The notes beneath the pieces were generated by a model, which saw only the letters and a list, made by a program, of their open reading frames with translations, was not told where the DNA came from and did no database searches. Positions 12,827 to 37,607 of a stretch of DNA of 38,772 nucleotides are shown here, piece after piece; positions within the stretch are counted from its first letter, which is position 1, and each line of letters starts with the position of its first letter. The position numbers and the translations under genes were made by a program. The stretch lies in the UHGV virus genome UHGV-0236456; one strand, given 5' to 3'. Source of the stretch: a virus.

Positions 12827-14196
12827 TAATAATCCTCTTGCCAGTCAGCACCAGCATAGTTATCAAACCGTGAGTATTGGCCGTTAAAAGCCAATCTCAC
12901 CGTGCCAATTGGGCCATTTCGTTGCTTTCCGATAATTACCTCGGCAATGCCCTTCATTTCGCTATCCGGGTGATAAACTTCGTCGCGATACAGAAACATG
13001 ATCAGGTCTGCGTCCTGCTCAATTGCTCCTGATTCACGTAAATCTGAATTTACCGGTCGTTTGTCCGCACGCTGTTCAAGCGATCGATTAAGTTGTGACA
13101 ATGCCACCACCGGTACTTGTAATTCCTTCGCCAACGCCTTCAGTGAGCGAGAAATCTCGGCAATTTCCAGCGTTCGGTTATCTTGCAGCTCGGGGACGCG
13201 CATAAGTTGCAGGTAGTCGATCATAATCATGCTCAAACCACCATTTTCTTTATAAACACGACGAGCGCGGGAACGAAGCTCTGTAGGTGTCAGGGCGCTT
13301 GAGTCATCAATAAAAATATTCTGCTTGTCCAACAGAATACCCATTGCGCCAGAAACCCGCGCCCAATCCTCGTCGTTAAGTTGCCCTGTCCGAATACGAG
13401 TCTGATCAACGCGTGCAAGAGAAGCCAGTGAGCGCATCATCAGCTGGTGGCTCGGCATCTCAAGGCTAAAAACCAATACGGGCTTATCGTTACGAACTGC
13501 GGCATTTTCGACGAGATTCATCGCAAACGTGGTCTTCCCCATAGATGGGCGGGCGGCGACAATGATGAGATCGGACGGCTGAAGCCCTGCCGTCTTCTTA
13601 TTGATATCGGTAAATCCCGTATCAAGCCCCGTTACACCATCATGTGGTCGCTGAAACAACTCTTCTATGCGAGATACCGTTGCATCGAGAATGCTGGCGA
13701 TATCTTTTGGACCACTACCGCTCTTTTGTCGTTTTTCAGCTATTTCAAAAACGCGGCGCTCGGCCATATCCAGCAATTCATTGCTGCCCCTGCCATCCTG
13801 CGCATATCCAGCTTCGGCTATTTCATTTGCGACGGAAATCATTTCACGAACAACCGCGCGTTCACGAACGATATCCGCATAAGCACAAATATTTGCCGCG
13901 CTGGGCGTGTTCTTTGACATCTCCGCAAGGTACGCAAAACCACCGGCGCGTTCTAATTTACCGTTCTGTTCAAGTGCTTCAGCAAGTGTTATCAAATCAA
14001 TCGGTTTGCCATGACTTAATAACCTCTCCATCTCACTGAAAATTTCACGATGAGCACTGGTATAAAAATCATCAGCAACTATACGATCTGCAACTTCATC
14101 CCAGCGGCAGTTATCAAGCATTAAGCCACCAAGTACAGCTTGTTCTGCACTAAGGGAATTTGGCATGGATTCAAGAGGGGATGCAGACATTAGCAC
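12826..14196 (-). CDS. ban: replicative DNA helicase, DnaB family (P1 Ban-like)
   Basis: 456 aa; Walker A GKTTFAMNL, DnaB N-terminal domain, conserved C-terminal RecA-like motifs; full-length colinearity with DnaB. Confidence 0.95.
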   Translation of the reverse strand: MLMSASPLESMPNSLSAEQAVLGGLMLDNCRWDEVADRIVADDFYTSAHREIFSEMERLLSHGKPIDLITLAEALEQNGKLERAGGFAYLAEMSKNTPSAANICAYADIVRERAVVREMISVANEIAEAGYAQDGRGSNELLDMAERRVFEIAEKRQKSGSGPKDIASILDATVSRIEELFQRPHDGVTGLDTGFTDINKKTAGLQPSDLIIVAARPSMGKTTFAMNLVENAAVRNDKPVLVFSLEMPSHQLMMRSLASLARVDQTRIRTGQLNDEDWARVSGAMGILLDKQNIFIDDSSALTPTELRSRARRVYKENGGLSMIMIDYLQLMRVPELQDNRTLEIAEISRSLKALAKELQVPVVALSQLNRSLEQRADKRPVNSDLRESGAIEQDADLIMFLYRDEVYHPDSEMKGIAEVIIGKQRNGPIGTVRLAFNGQYSRFDNYAGADWQEDY

Positions 14197-14579: not shown

Positions 14580-15407
14580 TTATTTCACCGGAACAAACGG
14601 AACAGCGGTATTACTGGTCATATACTGCGGTAATGTACCGTTCCATTTGTTGATCGCTTCCAACTCCATAACACCGGGGTTCTGGCGCAGAGCTTCACCA
14701 CGTAAACGAATGGCATCAGCTTCGGCCTGGGCTTTTGTGCGAATAGCATCAGCCTGTCCGGCAGCTTCCGCGCGCAGCATGTTGGCCTCTGCTTCACGTT
14801 GTTTGACCTCTTGCTCGCGTTGCAGGGTTTTTTGGTTTGCCGTGACTTTGGCGTTAATACTGTCAATAACTGTTGGCGGGTATTCTGGCTTACCTACATA
14901 AGAGAGGCTCATCACCTGAATGCCGATTGGCGTCATTTCTTCCTGAATGTCTTTAAGGGCTGCATCAAGCAATTCAGATTTGCCACCGTCGATAAATTTG
15001 TCGGTGGTCATTTTGCTGGCTAACCGGTTCAGAGCATCTGCAACCTTCTGGCGTAGATCGGTATCAGTAATATCATCTACACCTTTGCGATAGGTCTGAA
15101 ATACCGTTGTGACTTTTGCTGGATCAACCTTGTAGGCTACGCCGATGTGGTAACCAATGGTTGTTCCGTCGCTCATCTGGAAGCTGAACGGCTCATCGTA
15201 TGTCTTCATTTGCTTAAAGGTCGGGAAGATATAAACTTCAGTATTCAAGCCTGTCCAGTAGCGACCAACGCCAACTACTTCACCGATACCTTTATCATCC
15301 CCCAGCTTATTTACTTTGATCCCTACGTTACCTGGCTCTACCCGATCGCATCCGGTCAGACATAAAGAACCCAAAATAATCGCTGCACTAATCAACGTTT
15401 TTTTCAT
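14580..15407 (-). CDS. SPFH/band-7 (prohibitin-like) lipoprotein
   Basis: Lipoprotein signal MKKTLISAAIILGSLCLTGC (lipobox LTGC); SPFH core then Ala/Glu/Gln-rich coiled coil; 275 aa. Possibly P1 plp (unverified). Confidence 0.8.
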   Translation of the reverse strand: MKKTLISAAIILGSLCLTGCDRVEPGNVGIKVNKLGDDKGIGEVVGVGRYWTGLNTEVYIFPTFKQMKTYDEPFSFQMSDGTTIGYHIGVAYKVDPAKVTTVFQTYRKGVDDITDTDLRQKVADALNRLASKMTTDKFIDGGKSELLDAALKDIQEEMTPIGIQVMSLSYVGKPEYPPTVIDSINAKVTANQKTLQREQEVKQREAEANMLRAEAAGQADAIRTKAQAEADAIRLRGEALRQNPGVMELEAINKWNGTLPQYMTSNTAVPFVPVK

Positions 15408-15624
15408 TAATTAATTTCCTGGTTTTTTCACGAAAAAAGACTACTGCGAAAGCCGGGTAAATGAGCGCGAGAAGGACTCCCAACAATACAAGTATTGTGC
15501 TGTTAGATGAGATCATATTTGGCAAAAGCCAAACATACAGAACCAGTGACACAATCAAACAGAGGACGGCATAAATATATAACCGCACCCATAGCGTTCG
15601 ACATTTGTTCGAATTGTTCTGCAT
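15388..15624 (-). CDS. small integral membrane protein (two predicted TM helices)
   Basis: 78 aa with two hydrophobic stretches; overlaps the SPFH gene start by 20 nt (coupled). Possibly P1 upl (unverified). Confidence 0.5.
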   Translation of the reverse strand: MQNNSNKCRTLWVRLYIYAVLCLIVSLVLYVWLLPNMISSNSTILVLLGVLLALIYPAFAVVFFREKTRKLINEKNVD

Positions 15625-16630: not shown

Positions 16631-16706
16631 TGGCGATGGTGGATGGATTTGAACCATCGACCCGTTGATTAACAGTCAACCGCTCTAACCGCTGAGCTAC
16701 ACCATC
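16631..16706 (-). tRNA. tRNA-Asn (GUU)
   Basis: 76-nt cloverleaf: acceptor GATGGTG/CACCATC, anticodon loop CUGUUAA, T-loop GGTTCAAATCC, CCA end; 2 nt from tRNA-Thr. Confidence 0.85.
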
Positions 16707-17374
16707 ACTTGCCGGGTACGTCTCCGGCGAGGGCTTCCACCTCCGTATGCTTTTCGGCGCACCGCGCCCTGGCTGCAATTCGGTAACAGGGGATGCATAA
16801 CCCTGGCTTCCAGCGTGATTAGCGCTTTCAGCATGACGGGATATACCCGTAAATTCGTGGAACTGTACCCAAAGTGCTGTTAAGCACCGCTGTTACGCTG
16901 AAAAGAAGACGCAACAGGAAAGGACGCTGACCAACAGATGGCCCCTTCTCGTTCATCTGGTTAATCACACCAGCGCCCTTACCTGTTGTGCCTCCCCGTT
17001 CCCTAATACACAGACGGGGACACTCTGCGGTCGATTTTTTGACGGGGGACGACTCATACCCCGTGGCGTCTGGCTTCTTAGGCCGCTACCATCATCAGAT
17101 CATCGTTTGCATTTACTTTAATGGTCAGTTTCTAAACCGCCGCAAAGTCGCTAACCATGACGAAAACCCTGAAAAAAACGCCCACCCGAAGATGGGCAAA
17201 CTGGAAGCTCGTAACGCACTTCGGTGTTGCCACTTAGGCGTATGGTCAACCTGGCAACTCGGCGTCATGAGGGGGAAGGAGTCACTACCCCGCCATACTT
17301 GCCGCCGCGCCTGTCGCGGCTAACAGCTAAATCGCTCTATAAATCACGATTCATTGAGGCGATATTACACTAAT

Positions 17375-17391
17375 AAATTTATTAGAGCAAT
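17375..17391 (-). promoter_or_regulatory. C1 operator, perfect 17/17 match (AAATTTATTAGAGCAAT = reverse complement of ATTGCTCTAATAAATTT), within a 16-bp palindrome CTAATAAATTTATTAG
   Basis: Read in sequence; overlaps the 3' end of the methyltransferase gene and heads the tRNA/helicase transcription unit. Confidence 0.6.
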
Positions 17392-19400
17392 ATTGCTATA
17401 ACGTCATGAGCAACACCTCGAGTGTCCCCCTTACAAGACACAGAACGTCTGGCAAAAAGAGGTTCCACTCTGAAGCCACTGTCCTGATAAAGTTCTCTGA
17501 TGTTTGGCGCGCCACTGTTAGTAATGAGAACCTTTGCACCTCGGCGATGAGCATCCGTCAACAGAGACGCCAGGCGTTTTTGCTCTTCAAACTTAAAGTC
17601 ATGACCGGAATAGTTCGTGAATCCCTCTGTATTTGGGAGCGGTTCATACGGCGGATCGCAAAAGATGACATCTCCTTCTCCGGCAGCTTCAATCACCGCA
17701 GCAAAATCACCACATACAAACTCAGAACGCCCTTCCGCACCAAGGAAGGCTTCCATCTCCTGCAATGGGAAATACGGAGTTTTATACTTCCCATAACCGA
17801 CATTGAACTCACCGGCTTGGTTGTAACGCGTCAATCCGTTAAAACAATGTCGGTTCAGGAACAAAAACGCCGCTGCGCGATGTAAATCATCATAGACTTG
17901 TTTGTTAAACGCATTCCGTACTGCCAGGTATCCTTCCTGCGTGTTGTAGTCCTGGAAGAAACGATGTGCCAGAGTGATAAGTGAATGCGCCTCGCGTTGC
18001 AGAGTCTTGTAAAAGTTAATCAGGTCAGCATTCACATCATTTAGCAGATTTTCCTGGTATCCGGCATTCATGAAGACAGCTCCGCCACCAACGAAAGGCT
18101 CAATCAGGCGCTTCCCTTCTGGCAAATAGCGAAAGATTTGTTCCAGAACACCAAATTTTCCACCAGCCCATTTGAATATGGACCGTTCGAATTCTGCCGC
18201 TGGTTTAACTTTTCGCTCTTTTGTTTCACTCCCTTCCTTCTGCCGACATGCAGCCTTGGCAATCCGATCGCCAATCCAGCGCATTACTGGTATCGCCATA
18301 CTATTGCCGATCGCTTTGTAACGCGGTCCGTCAGCTGCAAGCATCGCGGCCTCTTCTTCGCTCAAATCAGGATAGTTTTTGCGAAGGTATGCCAGTTCAT
18401 CTGAAGAAACTTTTTTACGCTTTTCCGTAGGGATCAATGTATGTCCATCAGGAAAACCTTGCAGCCTTTCACATTCGACAGGGATAAGACGGCGCATTCT
18501 ACCGTCGACGAGCAATACAATTGGTGCTTCATGGTTACATGTCAAAGTTGGTGCCGAATTATCGGTTTTTATCTCAGCCCCTCCTTGCCCATGTGCCATG
18601 GCAACTATGTTTGTATCATCGCAAGATCTGATAGCGATGTTTGAAGTATATCTGGTAGTTTCCTTCCCCTCGCCTCTGCTCGGCGCAATATTCCGGCGCA
18701 CGCCTTCGAACTCAAAAAGTACCGTTGCGGGATCGAGGTCTGTTCGAGCACTTGCGACAACAAACACGCGTCGGCGTCGTTGTGCCACTCCGAAGTATTG
18801 GGCATCAAGGATTCTCCAGGCCACCTTTCGCTGCGGTCCATAAATACAACCACACTGCGGCCACTTTGGAGCATGGCAACCGGTTTTGCCATCCCACCGC
18901 CAGAACGCGTTACTTTTTCCTGATTCAGGTCGATCACCTGGTTCAAATGGCGCATCTTCTCCAGCCAATCCGGCAAGGAAACATCCGAAGGCGTTATCTG
19001 CCGATGACAGGACTCCTGGGACATTTTCCCAGACGATAACTGTCGGTTTGAGGAAGGACTCAGACCGTTTGTCGTCAATTGCATTTGCAAGCTCCACATA
19101 CTTCAAAGTTAGCGCGCCGCGTTCATCATCAAGCCCACCACGTAAGCCCGCGATACTGAATGCCTGACAAGGCGTACCCCCGACGAGCACATCAGGGGAT
19201 TCGATTTCCCCAGCCAGGACTTTTTTGGCAAGTTTTGTCATGTCGCCAAGGTTGGCGACATGGGGCCAGCGGTGCGCAAGAACGGCAGATGGAAAAGGCT
19301 CGATTTCAGCAAACCACGCCGGACGCATACCCAACGGTTCCCAGGCAATACTCGCGGCTTCAATTCCACTGCAAACAGATCCATAGCACAGCTCTTTCAC
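17382..19400 (-). CDS. dmt: bifunctional DNA methyltransferase: N-terminal C5-cytosine MTase fused to C-terminal Dam-like N6-adenine MTase
   Basis: N-terminal [12 protein letters not shown] (PCQ) and VWENVPG (ENV) motifs; C-terminal [11 protein letters not shown]...DPPY motifs colinear with Dam; 672 aa. Confidence 0.9.
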
Positions 19401-20302
19401 TGCTTAGCCTCTCCACCAAGGGCATTTACCAGAGCATCAACCAGGCACGAAATTTCACTGGTCAACAGGAAGAAATCTGCGTCCAGTCGCTGCGCAACAT
19501 CTTCACTATCAATATCAGAGTTCTGCTCAAGCAATTCATCCGCAAATTTGACGCTGGTAAGGCTGAAGTTATGGTCCAGTGTAAATTTAATGCGGTTCTG
19601 CCAGTCGAGTGCCAACTTAGTAACGAGCTTGCCAGCTTCCAGGTGTGTGGAAATTTCATCGCTTCCCAAATCCTGCTTTTTCACTCGGGCAATACCGCCA
19701 TCCTCAAGCACTGCCTTAAGTTCTGCCGCATCCCCCATTTGAAATCCCTGTGGAGCACTACCATCACGTACCCAGTCGGTCAGCGTTAATTCAATGGGAT
19801 TTTCAACACTCAGGGGAACAACAGGAAGAGAACCCAGAGACTTACGCATAAGCGCGAGCATATCCTCTGCCTGCCGCGCGCTGGCATTGATATAGATACG
19901 TTTAGTTGAACCGTCGTAGATCGCCTGGATAACAGAAAACTTTGAAAAAGCCCGTGGCAGAAGAGAATGCAGAACTTCGTCTTTCAGGGAGTCCTTCTCT
20001 GTTTTCTTCAGTTTACGCGCTTGTTCTTGCTCAAGTTTTTCAATTTTTTCTTGAATAGCTCGCTGGATAACCGGCGGGGGAAGAATTTTTGTTTCGCGCT
20101 TTGCTTCAACAAGGATAAAACCATTTCCATGCATAGCGATAACTTCGGAATTATCACCAAATGGAGATACAAAACCGAACTTGGCCATATCCTGACTACC
20201 GCATGGCGTGAAAAGGATCATTTTCTTTTTATCTTCTAAGTCGGTCAGATCCGCCTCACGAGAAAGTTTATAAATAGTAATGTTTTTCCAGTGCTTAAAC
20301 AT
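19397..20302 (-). CDS. hrdC: RdgC-family recombination-associated protein
   Basis: Start moved to internal Met ([16 protein letters not shown]); strong colinearity with E. coli RdgC as I recall it ([48 protein letters not shown]); ~301 aa. Confidence 0.85.
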
Positions 20303-20579
20303 GTTGTAACCCTTGAATATCAACCACAGAAAGCTCGTCTTTGTAGAAAAAGGCCAGGTTGTGGCACCCCCTCGTTTGAGCGTATGAGCTGGGACCAATT
20401 TCGTTCTTCCAGACAAATGGCTTCAAATCCGTACGGCGAAGCATAAAAACGCGATTTGTTCCGCTCTGATTCCCAATGAGGCAAAAGCCTTCTTTCACCT
20501 TGATAGCCTGCAAGTTGTCGAGTTCACCGCTGGTTACACGGCTATCGAACTCCTTGCGGCTTATTAGCTCCATCTGCAT
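20295..20579 (-). CDS. hypothetical protein (~94 aa)
   Basis: Start set at Met preceded by GGAG SD ([11 protein letters not shown]...); stop overlaps rdgC-like start; first gene after operator at 20651. Confidence 0.5.
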
Positions 20580-20650
20580 CTGACGACTCCAAACAAATGC
20601 CCATTGAAGGGCGATGGCTGAATGGTACCGAAAACACGATATAAAAAACA

Positions 20651-20667
20651 ATATTTATTAGAGCAAT
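20651..20667 (-). promoter_or_regulatory. C1 operator-like site (ATATTTATTAGAGCAAT, 16/17) in divergent promoter region
   Basis: Read in sequence; between minus-strand dmt operon and plus-strand PAAR-like operon. Confidence 0.55.
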
Positions 20668-20748
20668 TTTGCAATAAGTAAACGCCATACAGACCACAAA
20701 TAACCTAAGTTAAAATAACGAAAATCAGAGCAAATCATTGGTGATGAC

Positions 20749-21033
20749 GTGGCAAGTATTGCAACAAAAGACAGCATTTGTTCGGGGCACGGAGGATTCC
20801 CATCCAGGCCTCCCGTAGAGAGCGAATCACTACTTAAAGTCAACGGAGTCGAAGTGTTAGTTGATGGTAAGCAATATGCACAGCATACCGATGGGAACAG
20901 CACGCACGGCGGGCAAGCTATATCAACCAGGGCATGGTTTACCGTCAACGGGAAAGGGATCGTATGCGTTGGTGATCCTGTTTCATGCGGCTCTACCGTT
21001 GCAGCCGGAGACGGCCTGGTTCAGGTAAGTTAG
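20749..21033 (+). CDS. PAAR-like small protein (spike-tip sharpening protein family, tentative)
   Basis: 94 aa, GTG start; ICSGHGG...VNGVEVLVDGKQ...THGG...VNGKGIVCVGDPVSCGSTVAAGDGLVQV pattern resembling PAAR/gp5.4-type proteins. Confidence 0.55.
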   Translation: MASIATKDSICSGHGGFPSRPPVESESLLKVNGVEVLVDGKQYAQHTDGNSTHGGQAISTRAWFTVNGKGIVCVGDPVSCGSTVAAGDGLVQVS

Positions 21034-24374: not shown

Positions 24375-25184
24375 ATGCAAGAAGAGAAACAACACTACCT
24401 CTACGTTCTGGTGCCAGAGAACGGAGATACTTTTAAAATCGGCATTTCATGTGGTCCATTGGCACGGTTTAAAGGGCTACAAGTGAGTCCCGATTTTGCG
24501 CTTTCACGGGTCTATCGTGGTACGCGTTTGGCAATGGTTAATCTTGAGCGGGCTTTACACGCAACCTTTTTCCCCTGGAATGCGCCGTGGGAGAAAAGCG
24601 CCGGTGGCGGGCATACTGAATGGTTTACACGAGAGTGTCTTGATAAGGTTTTGGCTCATATCGAATATCTAAATGATATGTGGGGAGGGATTCTCGAGCG
24701 CATTAAGTCGAATGATTTACTTCAGCGTCCAGTAGATGCTGCTTGCTCTTTCGAAAAAGAGCTGGATGTTACTTCTATCGTGACTTTCAAAGATGACGCA
24801 GGAATGAGGGACGTGGCTTATGTCTCCATATCTGGCTATGAACCGGACGCGATCCGCGCTCAATGTGAATTGCTGAAAGCAATGTTTATGCTTCGGACTA
24901 AATATCCCTGGGATACAGGGCGGGTGTGCTTCCCTATGGAAGAGTTAACCGCCACCATTGATTCCCAGCTTTACCACGATAATCCAGAGAAGTTTTTTAG
25001 CCTTTTAGCCGGTAATGGGCTTAACTGTGTGTCCGGGCTGGGGCGAAGTAGAATCCAACATGCCTCGCTCTTCGGTCCCTTCTTTTACGATCGACACGGG
25101 TACTTTGAGGCTGAACTTCCGGCGCTTACGCGTGCTATAGATACTATCGATTTCGAACGATTATTCGCTGCTCTTAGCAAATAA
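24375..25184 (+). CDS. T5orf172/GIY-YIG-like domain protein (putative nuclease) with uncharacterised C-terminal domain
   Basis: N-terminal YLYVLVPENGDTFKIGIS...ERALHATF...GGGHTEWF resembles the GIY-YIG-like T5orf172 (MUG113) pattern; 269 aa; own terminator; sits between incA iterons and parA. Confidence 0.7.
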   Translation: MQEEKQHYLYVLVPENGDTFKIGISCGPLARFKGLQVSPDFALSRVYRGTRLAMVNLERALHATFFPWNAPWEKSAGGGHTEWFTRECLDKVLAHIEYLNDMWGGILERIKSNDLLQRPVDAACSFEKELDVTSIVTFKDDAGMRDVAYVSISGYEPDAIRAQCELLKAMFMLRTKYPWDTGRVCFPMEELTATIDSQLYHDNPEKFFSLLAGNGLNCVSGLGRSRIQHASLFGPFFYDRHGYFEAELPALTRAIDTIDFERLFAALSK

Positions 25185-37590: not shown

Positions 37591-37607
37591 AAATTTATTA
37601 GAGCAAA
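37591..37607 (-). promoter_or_regulatory. C1 operator-like site (AAATTTATTAGAGCAAA, 16/17) upstream of kilA
   Basis: Read in sequence; position equivalent to the operator controlling kilA-repL in P1 (memory). Confidence 0.55.

Follow-up and report, generated by a model that had tools for sequence, protein, structure and literature searches.

Phages P1 and P7 are the closest described systems: their genome records annotate three genes, uhr, hrdC and dmt (the latter named dam in P7), and two operators, Odmt and Oban. These records are GenBank AF503408 and AF234172, and the operon is said to figure in the genome annotation of Lobocka et al. 2004. The standard roles of such genes in P1 are the control of packaging by Dam methylation, possibly anti-restriction, and the modulation of RecA by RdgC. 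More specifically, dmt of P1 is under the control of C1, and its expression is induced when the phage enters lytic growth (PMC4713147); P1 requires Dam methylation at pac, with dmt being required in Dam- hosts, according to the review PMC12707154, citing Sternberg and Coulby 1990. When each gene was silenced by CRISPRi in a wild-type host, uhr, hrdC and dmt all proved to be non-essential (PMC10695390).

The window analysed here is the whole stretch of 38,772 nucleotides of virus genome UHGV-0236456, and the locus at 17382-20302 is part of the known uhr-hrdC-dmt operon of a P1/P7-like phage-plasmid (Punavirus) of E. coli. Over a region of 3.7 kb, the identity is 97-98% with P1 and P7, and it reaches 99.9% with many E. 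coli plasmids. All three genes lie on the minus strand: uhr, the first gene of the operon (20295..20579, 94 amino acids), is colinear with uhr of P1 and upf64.0 of P7; hrdC (19397..20302, with its ATG at 20302) encodes a protein of the RdgC family with 301 amino acids; and dmt (17382..19400), with a GTG start, encodes a bifunctional DNA methyltransferase of 672 amino acids. The genes are tightly packed: uhr overlaps the start of hrdC by 8 nucleotides, and the TGA of hrdC overlaps the GTG of dmt as GTGA, with the sequence GGAGAGG 7 nucleotides upstream of that GTG. The synteny with P1 and P7 extends further, in the order Odmt - uhr - hrdC - dmt - Oban - tRNA-Asn/Thr - ... - ban, where the DnaB-like Ban is found at 12826..14196 of the window; the neighbours comprise uhr, a UpfC-like gene, the tRNAs, an SPFH gene, Ban, Rep and a T5orf172 gene. 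The three genes, their order and overlaps, the C1 operators and the succession of a C5 and a Dam domain in the last protein are all shared with the operons of P7 Dam and P1 Dmt.

The initial annotation had seen here an orphan C5 and N6 phage methyltransferase sharing an operon with an RdgC homologue, and this core reading is right; the pair is real but ordinary, since the operon is already described. The gene order needs correction. The RdgC homologue exists (PF04381, E 5.6e-98), but it does not follow dmt: it lies upstream on the coding minus strand. Furthermore, an operon of two genes is incomplete, as uhr, behind a C1 operator, heads it. That the three genes are co-transcribed is suggested by their overlaps and by the P1 annotation. 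Uhr itself matches PHROG 2213 (E 8e-64) and neither a Pfam nor an NCBIfam family; the label of this PHROG, nucleoside triphosphate pyrophosphohydrolase, was not retained, having no backing from either collection. We assign a probability of about 0.85 to the overall reading, namely a C1-controlled uhr-hrdC-dmt operon in which the Dam half of Dmt serves GATC methylation at pac, the C5 half is predicted to be active, and HrdC is the RdgC-like member. The re-identification of a textbook phage operon carries little weight alone. It also brings out that the C5 half of a very widespread gene of E. coli phage-plasmids is conserved, and yet comes in swappable cassettes, and that a homing intein is spreading through the catalytic site of Dmt.

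The window contains 8 matches to C1 operators, for 0.33 expected. One of them, at 20651..20667 (minus strand, ATTGCTCTAATAAATAT), has 1 mismatch to the 17-bp C1 consensus and is Odmt, or Op68 of P1: it is located about 70 nucleotides upstream of the uhr start, which is where the records of P1 and P7 have Odmt/Pdmt. At the other end of the operon, the bipartite operator Oban (Op72a/b), which belongs to the tRNA-ban operon downstream, spans 17364..17391, its half-sites being a perfect consensus match at 17375..17391 (minus strand) and a match with 2 mismatches at 17364..17380 (plus strand). Half-site a includes the final codons and the stop codon of dmt, in the sequence ...ATATTGCTCTAATAAATTT, and the end of dmt is annotated likewise in the records of P1 and P7. 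A C1 operator before uhr and a second one over the dmt stop point to a lytic-cycle operon. While the operators are found here, the control that they exert is taken from work on P1, and C1-repressed, lytic-cycle expression would follow by analogy: in the prophage, C1 at Odmt would hold the operon off; induction or infection would allow transcription from Pdmt, which the P1 annotation sets directly downstream of Odmt; and the three genes would then be translated as a coupled unit through their overlapping stop and start codons. A scan with the sigma-70 consensus did not recover Pdmt, and the promoter is therefore placed by homology to the P1 annotation only.

Dmt has 97% identity with P7 Dam (AAQ07538) and 91% with P1 Dmt (AAQ14041), and 100% identical proteins exist in the databases. 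It is composed of a complete C5-cytosine methyltransferase domain (amino acids 1 to about 389, 18234..19400, minus strand; PF00145, TIGR00675) and a complete Dam-type N6-adenine domain of the D12 class (amino acids about 403 to 672, 17385..18194, minus strand; PF02086, TIGR00571). Between them, a charged linker (amino acids 390-402, 18195..18233, minus strand), with pLDDT below 50 at these residues, separates the end of the C5 homology from residue 405, where the alignment with E. coli Dam starts. The claim that a single protein of 672 amino acids, read from the frame 17382..19400 on the minus strand, carries both motif sets stands, with Pfam matches far beyond chance, and the motifs PCQ, ENV, FKWAGGK and DPPY are all where they had been placed. 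Mapping by profiles gives PF00145 followed by PF02086, both above their cut-offs. This order had tentatively been thought to be the opposite of that of P1 Dmt, which is mistaken: in the 754 amino acids of the P1 protein, the match to PF00145 (8-135 onward) precedes the one to PF02086 (493-725), so that P1 Dmt also has the C5 domain first and nothing is inverted. A possible false lead is thus corrected. Compared with P1 Dmt, residues 1-240 are identical at 239 of 240 positions and the Dam half at 263 of 268, the only difference between the two systems being in the cassette between motifs VIII and IX. Both halves are under purifying selection, with dN/dS of 0.14-0.24 in the C5 core and 0.08-0.11 in the Dam half.

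The Dam half matches PF02086 over amino acids 411-644 (E 1.2e-57) and TIGR00571 with 253.9 bits, for a cut-off of 114.85. Its motifs are FKWAGGK at amino acids 409-415 (18156..18176, minus strand), DPPY at 582-585 (17646..17657, minus strand) and FxGxG. It has the same fold as E. coli Dam (PDB 2G1P/2ORE/4RTJ) and T4 Dam, with DPPY, FxGxG and KWAGGK in common; with E. coli Dam it shares 40% identity over 263 amino acids (E 1e-58) and a Foldseek TM-score of 0.9. Six of the eight listed DNA-contact or intercalating positions of the E. coli enzyme are identical, K9, N120, L122, R124, N126 and Y138 being K410, N521, L523, R525, N527 and Y539 in Dmt. The two that differ, Y119F (F520) and P134G (G535), are the same substitutions in P1 Dmt. 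The domain is a member of the family only, and not an equivalog of host Dam, as it scores 248.6 bits with NF008152, for a cut-off of 441; its GATC specificity therefore rests on the conserved contact residues and on the P1 data. For the P1 enzyme this specificity has been demonstrated, and the record of P1 Dmt annotates GATC methylation. By analogy with P1, the most likely function of the Dam half is to methylate GATC so that pac can be cleaved. In P1, the PacA/PacB terminase needs methylation of the pac hexamers that contain GATC in order to cut; the Dam activity of the phage would then make packaging independent of host Dam, and link it to how far newly replicated DNA has been methylated. 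Unlike E. coli Dam, this half is fused to a C5 domain, and its expression under C1 would be restricted to the lytic cycle.

The C5 half matches PF00145 with 122.9 bits (E 2.4e-35, cut-off 22) and TIGR00675 with 112.9 bits (cut-off 100.65). The catalytic cysteine lies in motif IV, Pro77-Cys78-Gln79 (19164..19172, minus strand), and motif VI, ENV, occupies amino acids 125-127 (19020..19028, minus strand). Motifs I (VCSGIEA), VIII (QRRRR), IX and X (GNS) are also present, and the order is canonical; motif I has the form CSGIEA, a variant of this family that hardly changes among 148 relatives. In the AlphaFold model, the C5 core has pLDDT above 90, and Foldseek aligns it to M.HhaI with E 1.4e-13 and a target-normalized TM-score of 0.63-0.65; sequence matches to the solved structures M.HhaI and M.HaeIII cover only amino acids 51-131. 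The domain had been called Dcm, a label that is too specific. E. coli Dcm and M.EcoRII, which target CCWGG, belong to the same C5 superfamily and have the same catalytic motifs. As an orthologue of E. coli Dcm, however, the C5 half was rejected, with 19.9 bits for a cut-off of 710 in NF007772 and 24% identity over generic motifs only; since it fails this subfamily model, a CCWGG target cannot be assumed. In addition, Dmt differs from Dcm and M.EcoRII in having no vsr partner and an unrelated target-recognition segment.

We predict that the N-terminal domain is an active 5-methylcytosine transferase. There is the alternative that it is a catalytically silent relic, Dmt working as a Dam enzyme only while the variable segment drifts free of constraint. 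The P1 record says "perhaps" of an m5C function of Dmt, and the literature searched contains no report of m5C activity; in CRISPRi screens the gene proved dispensable, the variable segment is both hypervariable and modelled with low confidence, and the catalytic motif accommodates an intein in many alleles. On the other hand, all six diagnostic motifs are intact, together with every residue that is invariant in the 148 diverse relatives (P77, C78, Q79, E125, N126, V127, Q207, R209 and R211), the C5 core is under the purifying selection noted above, and nearly all dmt genes of the IMG/VR loci surveyed are full-length reading frames, with few truncated. The variable segment is swapped in whole in-frame cassettes with sharp borders, which is not decay, and inteins typically occupy functionally essential residues, the splicing restoring the cysteine. 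We consider a silent C5 half unlikely. The most likely role of an active one would be to methylate the DNA of the progeny in advance, protecting it from restriction in the host infected next; the target would be determined by the exchangeable segment that lies between motifs VIII and IX.

This target-recognition segment (amino acids 241-302, 18495..18680, minus strand) is a cassette of the P7 type. It is the sole block that differs from P1 Dmt, with 13 of 59 residues identical; AlphaFold gives it pLDDT below 50 at residues 243-291, and no characterised relative of it was found. The cassette is 62 amino acids long in the window and in P7, and 144 in P1. At the nucleotide level, dmt of the window is a mosaic: codons 1-240 are like those of P1, with 1 nucleotide of difference, and the cassette is like that of P7, with no synonymous differences. 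Among P1-like phage-plasmids, Dmt alleles have at least three types of cassettes (62, 144 and 252 amino acids) on backbones that are at least 97% identical, a module of about 75 amino acids being common to the 144 and 252 types. For each type there are alleles that have an intein at the catalytic Cys and alleles that lack it; this intein is an insertion of 341 amino acids (Hint and LAGLIDADG) that many other alleles have between Pro77 and Cys78. Alleles of 862 and, with the intein, of 1013 amino acids are among those known. In the window, dmt has no intein and reads ...GGTACGCCT|TGTCAG... uninterrupted, the empty insertion site being the bond between codons 77 and 78 (19170|19169). The sequence GGAACACCT is a variant counterpart of this empty site. 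In the literature searched, neither the cassette alleles nor the intein of Dmt was described.

It is tempting to conjecture that the segment is an exchangeable specificity cassette, and Dmt a polymorphic device, at the level of the population, for anti-restriction or self-marking; we advance this tentatively, at somewhat less than even odds. Bacillus phages SPR, phi3T and rho11s offer a comparison, with multispecific C5 enzymes that owe their specificity to exchangeable or tandem target-recognition domains. Like Dmt, these are orphan C5 enzymes borne by phages, silent in the lysogen and variable between motifs VIII and IX, the relationship in sequence being shown for the core motifs only. If each cassette has its own m5C target, Dmt would be comparable to these enzymes; long cassettes might have several targets, and the C5 activity of alleles with an intein would need protein splicing. 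The window would then hold one defined allele, with a P7-type cassette, no intein and a P1-like N-terminal backbone. That the long alleles are multispecific is a guess from their length and their repeated TL-like motifs; the cassette of the window, the shortest, has a single such motif.

Turning to HrdC, the match to PF04381 covers its full length, the RdgC equivalog NF001462 of NCBIfam gives 379 bits for a cut-off of 330, and the identity with E. coli RdgC (PDB 2OWL) is 62% (E 3e-113). The binding of a ring to double-stranded DNA, which inhibits the function of RecA filaments, is known for E. coli RdgC only; by analogy, HrdC would form a dimeric ring on duplex DNA and lower the activity of RecA during lytic replication. 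Unlike its E. coli counterpart, HrdC is encoded by a phage and would be repressed by C1. We infer both this role and any functional coupling with Dmt. One such coupling would be a unit in which HrdC delays the RecA-dependent processing of replicating DNA until it is methylated. The GTGA overlap, which couples translation, is in its favour, as is the adjacency of rdgC and dmt in diverged Salmonella and Citrobacter phage-plasmids, where Dmt is far more distant from the protein of the window (51-53% identity in the Dam half and 65-72% in the N-terminal C5 core). However, gene order within one phage lineage can be merely inherited, rdgC is unlinked to dam in E. coli, and hrdC and dmt are individually dispensable: we consider such a unit improbable.

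Finally, the absence of a restriction endonuclease gene nearby holds, none being found within about 5 kb on either side, so that the adjacent cognate endonuclease of a type II restriction-modification system is lacking. That Dmt might still provide the modification for a system with its endonuclease encoded at another place on the element can be dismissed as highly improbable: gene tables of PLSDB are incomplete and P1 carries a type III res/mod system at another locus, but that system has its own Mod subunit, about 81% of the record of a plasmid with 99.9% identity was examined and lists no endonuclease, PADLOC finds methyltransferase models only, with "orphan methyltransferase" as the best match of the Dam half, and an operon that is repressed in the lysogen could not shield the host from an endonuclease residing there.

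Two annotated elements of the P1 and P7 records complete the comparison. The DicF-like RNA that is annotated downstream of dmt in P1 has no Rfam DicF match in 16700..17420, with E up to 1. The record of P7 predicts an internal late promoter, LPdam2, upstream of the Dam half: its sequence is kept in the window, where it is a weak match to the consensus.

Sequence comparison shows that the DNA studied here comes from a P1/P7-like phage-plasmid. Phages P1 and P7 share 97-98% identity with region 17000..20700, and many E. coli plasmids of about 95 kb share 99.9%; in PLSDB the region has 683 matching records. On either side lie matches to tail, ban, rep, par and head genes of the P1 type. The locus is the long-annotated Dmt operon of P1 and P7, and is already known. 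It consists of three genes on the minus strand: uhr (20295..20579, 94 aa), hrdC (19397..20302, 301 aa) and dmt (17382..19400, 672 aa, with a GTG start). The ATG of hrdC and the stop codon of uhr overlap by 8 nt, and the GTG of dmt overlaps the TGA of hrdC as GTGA, with GGAGAGG 7 nt upstream. The core observation of the initial annotation, a double methyltransferase encoded together with an RdgC homologue, is real and its reading essentially correct: the coordinates of the gene pair are exactly those of hrdC and dmt, but hrdC was placed after dmt and is in fact upstream. All three genes are non-essential in a wild-type host by CRISPRi (PMC10695390). PHROGs and the RefSeq phage annotation label Uhr (20295..20579, minus strand) a nucleoside triphosphate pyrophosphohydrolase, a label that looks unsupported since the protein has no match in Pfam or NCBIfam.

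Dmt matches the C5-cytosine family PF00145 (E 2.4e-35) and, at residues 411-644, the D12 N6-adenine family PF02086 (E 1.2e-57) in Pfam; in NCBIfam, it exceeds the cut-offs of both the dcm superfamily and the Dam family. The motifs PCQ, ENV, FKWAGGK and DPPY, claimed from the start for a single 672-aa protein, are all present. The C5 half contains motifs I (VCSGIEA), IV (PCQ, aa 77-79), VI (ENV, aa 125-127), VIII (QRRRR, aa 207-211), IX (aa 303-318) and X (GNS, aa 365-367). Its family is very large, with 4261 representatives at E ≤1e-30 in a search of 1.84 billion, and the residues that never vary among 148 diverse aligned members are exactly the catalytic ones, all of which are found in the window protein. 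The Dam half contains DPPY, EPFVGGG and FKWAGGK; residues 405-670 align with E. coli Dam (E 1e-58, 40% identity), keeping its residues K9, N120, L122, R124, N126 and Y138, and the substitutions Y119F and P134G relative to EcoDam are common to the window Dmt and P1 Dmt, which the P1 record annotates as methylating GATC. The AlphaFold model has a mean pLDDT of 83.5, with both catalytic cores above 90 and values below 50 only at residues 243-291 and in the linker 390-402; Foldseek matches it to EcoDam (TM 0.9) and M.HhaI (E 1e-13). Measured against P7 and P1, dN/dS ranges from 0.14 to 0.24 in the C5 core and from 0.08 to 0.11 in the Dam half; on these small counts, both halves look constrained. 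The P7 record also places a predicted late promoter, LPdam2, within the coding sequence, ahead of the Dam half (18394..18412, minus strand); its sequence is conserved in the window and is a weak match to the consensus. If LPdam2 is real, a Dam-only product might result late in infection.

Two further details of the initial annotation have to be corrected. P1 Dmt, 754 aa long, has the C5 domain followed by Dam, as in the window, and the opposite order, tentatively suggested for it, was wrong. The C5 half is also no Dcm orthologue, as the label had it: its identity to E. coli Dcm is 24%, restricted to generic motifs, and it scores 19.9 bits with the Dcm model, whose cut-off is 710.

The Dmt of the window shares 97% identity with the P7 protein, named Dam, and 91% with P1 Dmt. 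Everything that sets it apart from P1 falls within aa 241-302; this stretch separates motif VIII from motif IX and is the target-recognition region of C5 enzymes. The first 720 nt of the gene have a single difference from P1, and no synonymous change separates the segment between the two motifs, or cassette, from that of P7: by its sequence, the window dmt is a mosaic of P1-like and P7-like parts that switches abruptly at codon 241.

The target-recognition segment (18495..18680, minus strand) comes in three or more exchangeable cassettes, of 62, 144 and 252 aa, on backbones at least 97% identical. At a threshold of at least 90% identity, the P7-type cassette is present in 184 PLSDB records and the P1-type in 257; the third, 252 aa long, yields a protein of 862 aa, for example in pM121-2, and has a module of about 75 aa in common with the P1-type cassette. 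In a sample of 80 IMG/VR loci whose HrdC is at least 98% identical, all six combinations of cassette and intein are present. Without an intein, there are 34 loci with the P1-type cassette (754 aa), 17 with the P7-type (672 aa, the class of the window allele) and five with the M121-type (862 or 807 aa); with one, nine P7-type (1013 aa), eight P1-type (1095 aa) and one M121-type (1148 aa). At loci L065, L085 and L087, the linker and the start of the Dam half differ (…AAYQQAKNHEATERRVKLTAEFDRPIFKWVGGK…); mosaicism therefore extends past the C5 cassette.

Most P7-type relatives in the databases are 1013 aa long and carry a 341-aa intein (Hint_2 and LAGLIDADG_3) that begins with Cys and ends with His-Asn. 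Its insertion point falls precisely at the bond joining Pro77 to the catalytic Cys78 of PCQ (window 19169|19170, codons 77/78). Intein-bearing alleles are 1013, 1095 or 1148 aa long; the intein occurs in 133 plasmids of PLSDB and at 20 of the 80 IMG/VR loci. It also sits at this site in seven of the 150 best representatives of the family, among them proteins without a Dam fusion. In the window the site is empty and reads GGTACGCCT|TGTCAG, the left flank being 19170..19178 (minus strand). In all 20 occupied alleles sampled this flank is GG(A/G)ACACCA (GGAACACCA or GGGACACCA), synonymous with the GGTACGCCT of the window, and none of the 20 has the window-type flank. The difference may reflect co-conversion of the flank, or a variant homing site, perhaps one that resists cleavage. 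This polymorphism of intein and putative specificity cassette is the modest upside of the locus; we found no paper on the cassette alleles, the intein, their combinations or the empty-site flank in the literature searched, which was that available without subscription, and claim no novelty.

That no restriction endonuclease gene lies nearby, as first reported, is borne out: there is none within 5 kb on either side, and PADLOC returns methyltransferase models only, the best being "orphan methyltransferase". Nor does one appear in the gene tables, themselves incomplete, for the roughly 81% that was examined of the record of a plasmid with 99.9% identity.

PF04381 covers the whole of HrdC (E 5.6e-98). 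The protein shares 62% identity with E. coli RdgC (2OWL, E 3e-113) and also passes an NCBIfam RdgC equivalog model, which confirms the proposed homology. In Salmonella pCFSAN058588 and Citrobacter pNY2385-2, rdgC also adjoins a dmt, whose product is 51-53% identical to that of the window in the Dam half and 65-72% in the C5 N-terminal core.

The operon would be transcribed from its promoter Pdmt upon derepression of C1; dmt is C1-controlled and induced in the lytic cycle (PMC4713147). The Dam domain would then methylate GATC on replicating phage DNA and so license pac cleavage, as shown for P1 and expected here from near identity: P1 packaging depends on pac being Dam-methylated, and P1 cannot do without dmt in Dam- hosts, according to PMC12707154, citing Sternberg and Coulby 1990. 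The C5 domain would add 5-methylcytosine at a motif set by the cassette, probably as a pre-emptive shield against restriction in the next host. By analogy with work on E. coli RdgC, we infer that HrdC moderates RecA, restraining it during lytic replication.

The 17-bp C1 operator consensus has eight matches in the window, against 0.33 expected. The match at 20651..20667, with one mismatch and about 70 nt upstream of uhr, occupies the position of Odmt (Op68) and Pdmt in the P1 and P7 records. Oban, the bipartite C1 operator of the downstream tRNA-ban operon, lies at 17364..17391, with a perfect match at 17375..17391 that overlaps a partner at 17364..17380. The final codons of dmt, stop included, fall inside the first half-site of Oban (…ATATTGCTCTAATAAATTT), and the operator and the C-terminus of Dmt therefore constrain each other. 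Further matches, with one to three mismatches, at 1176..1192, 3268..3333, 6941..6957 and 37591..37607, fit the scattered arrangement of the C1 regulon in P1.

Downstream of dmt are tRNA-Asn, tRNA-Thr, an SPFH gene, a tRNA(CAT) and the DnaB-like ban gene. The SPFH/Band-7 gene (275 aa) and a 78-aa membrane-like ORF lie between tRNA genes (14580..15624, minus strand) where P1 has tciA/tciB/tciC, upl and plp, an arrangement suggestive of a cargo swap. A T5orf172 (GIY-YIG-related) gene (24375..25184, plus strand) separates rep from parA; missing from P1 and named "GIY-YIG nuclease family" in the RefSeq record of a near-identical plasmid, it may represent an insertion of the homing-endonuclease type. 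A UpfC-like protein of 94 aa, encoded divergently from the dmt operon (20749..21033, plus strand), matches the PAAR motif weakly (E 1e-5, narrowly missing the Pfam cut-off), and its relatives are annotated "PAAR domain-containing protein".
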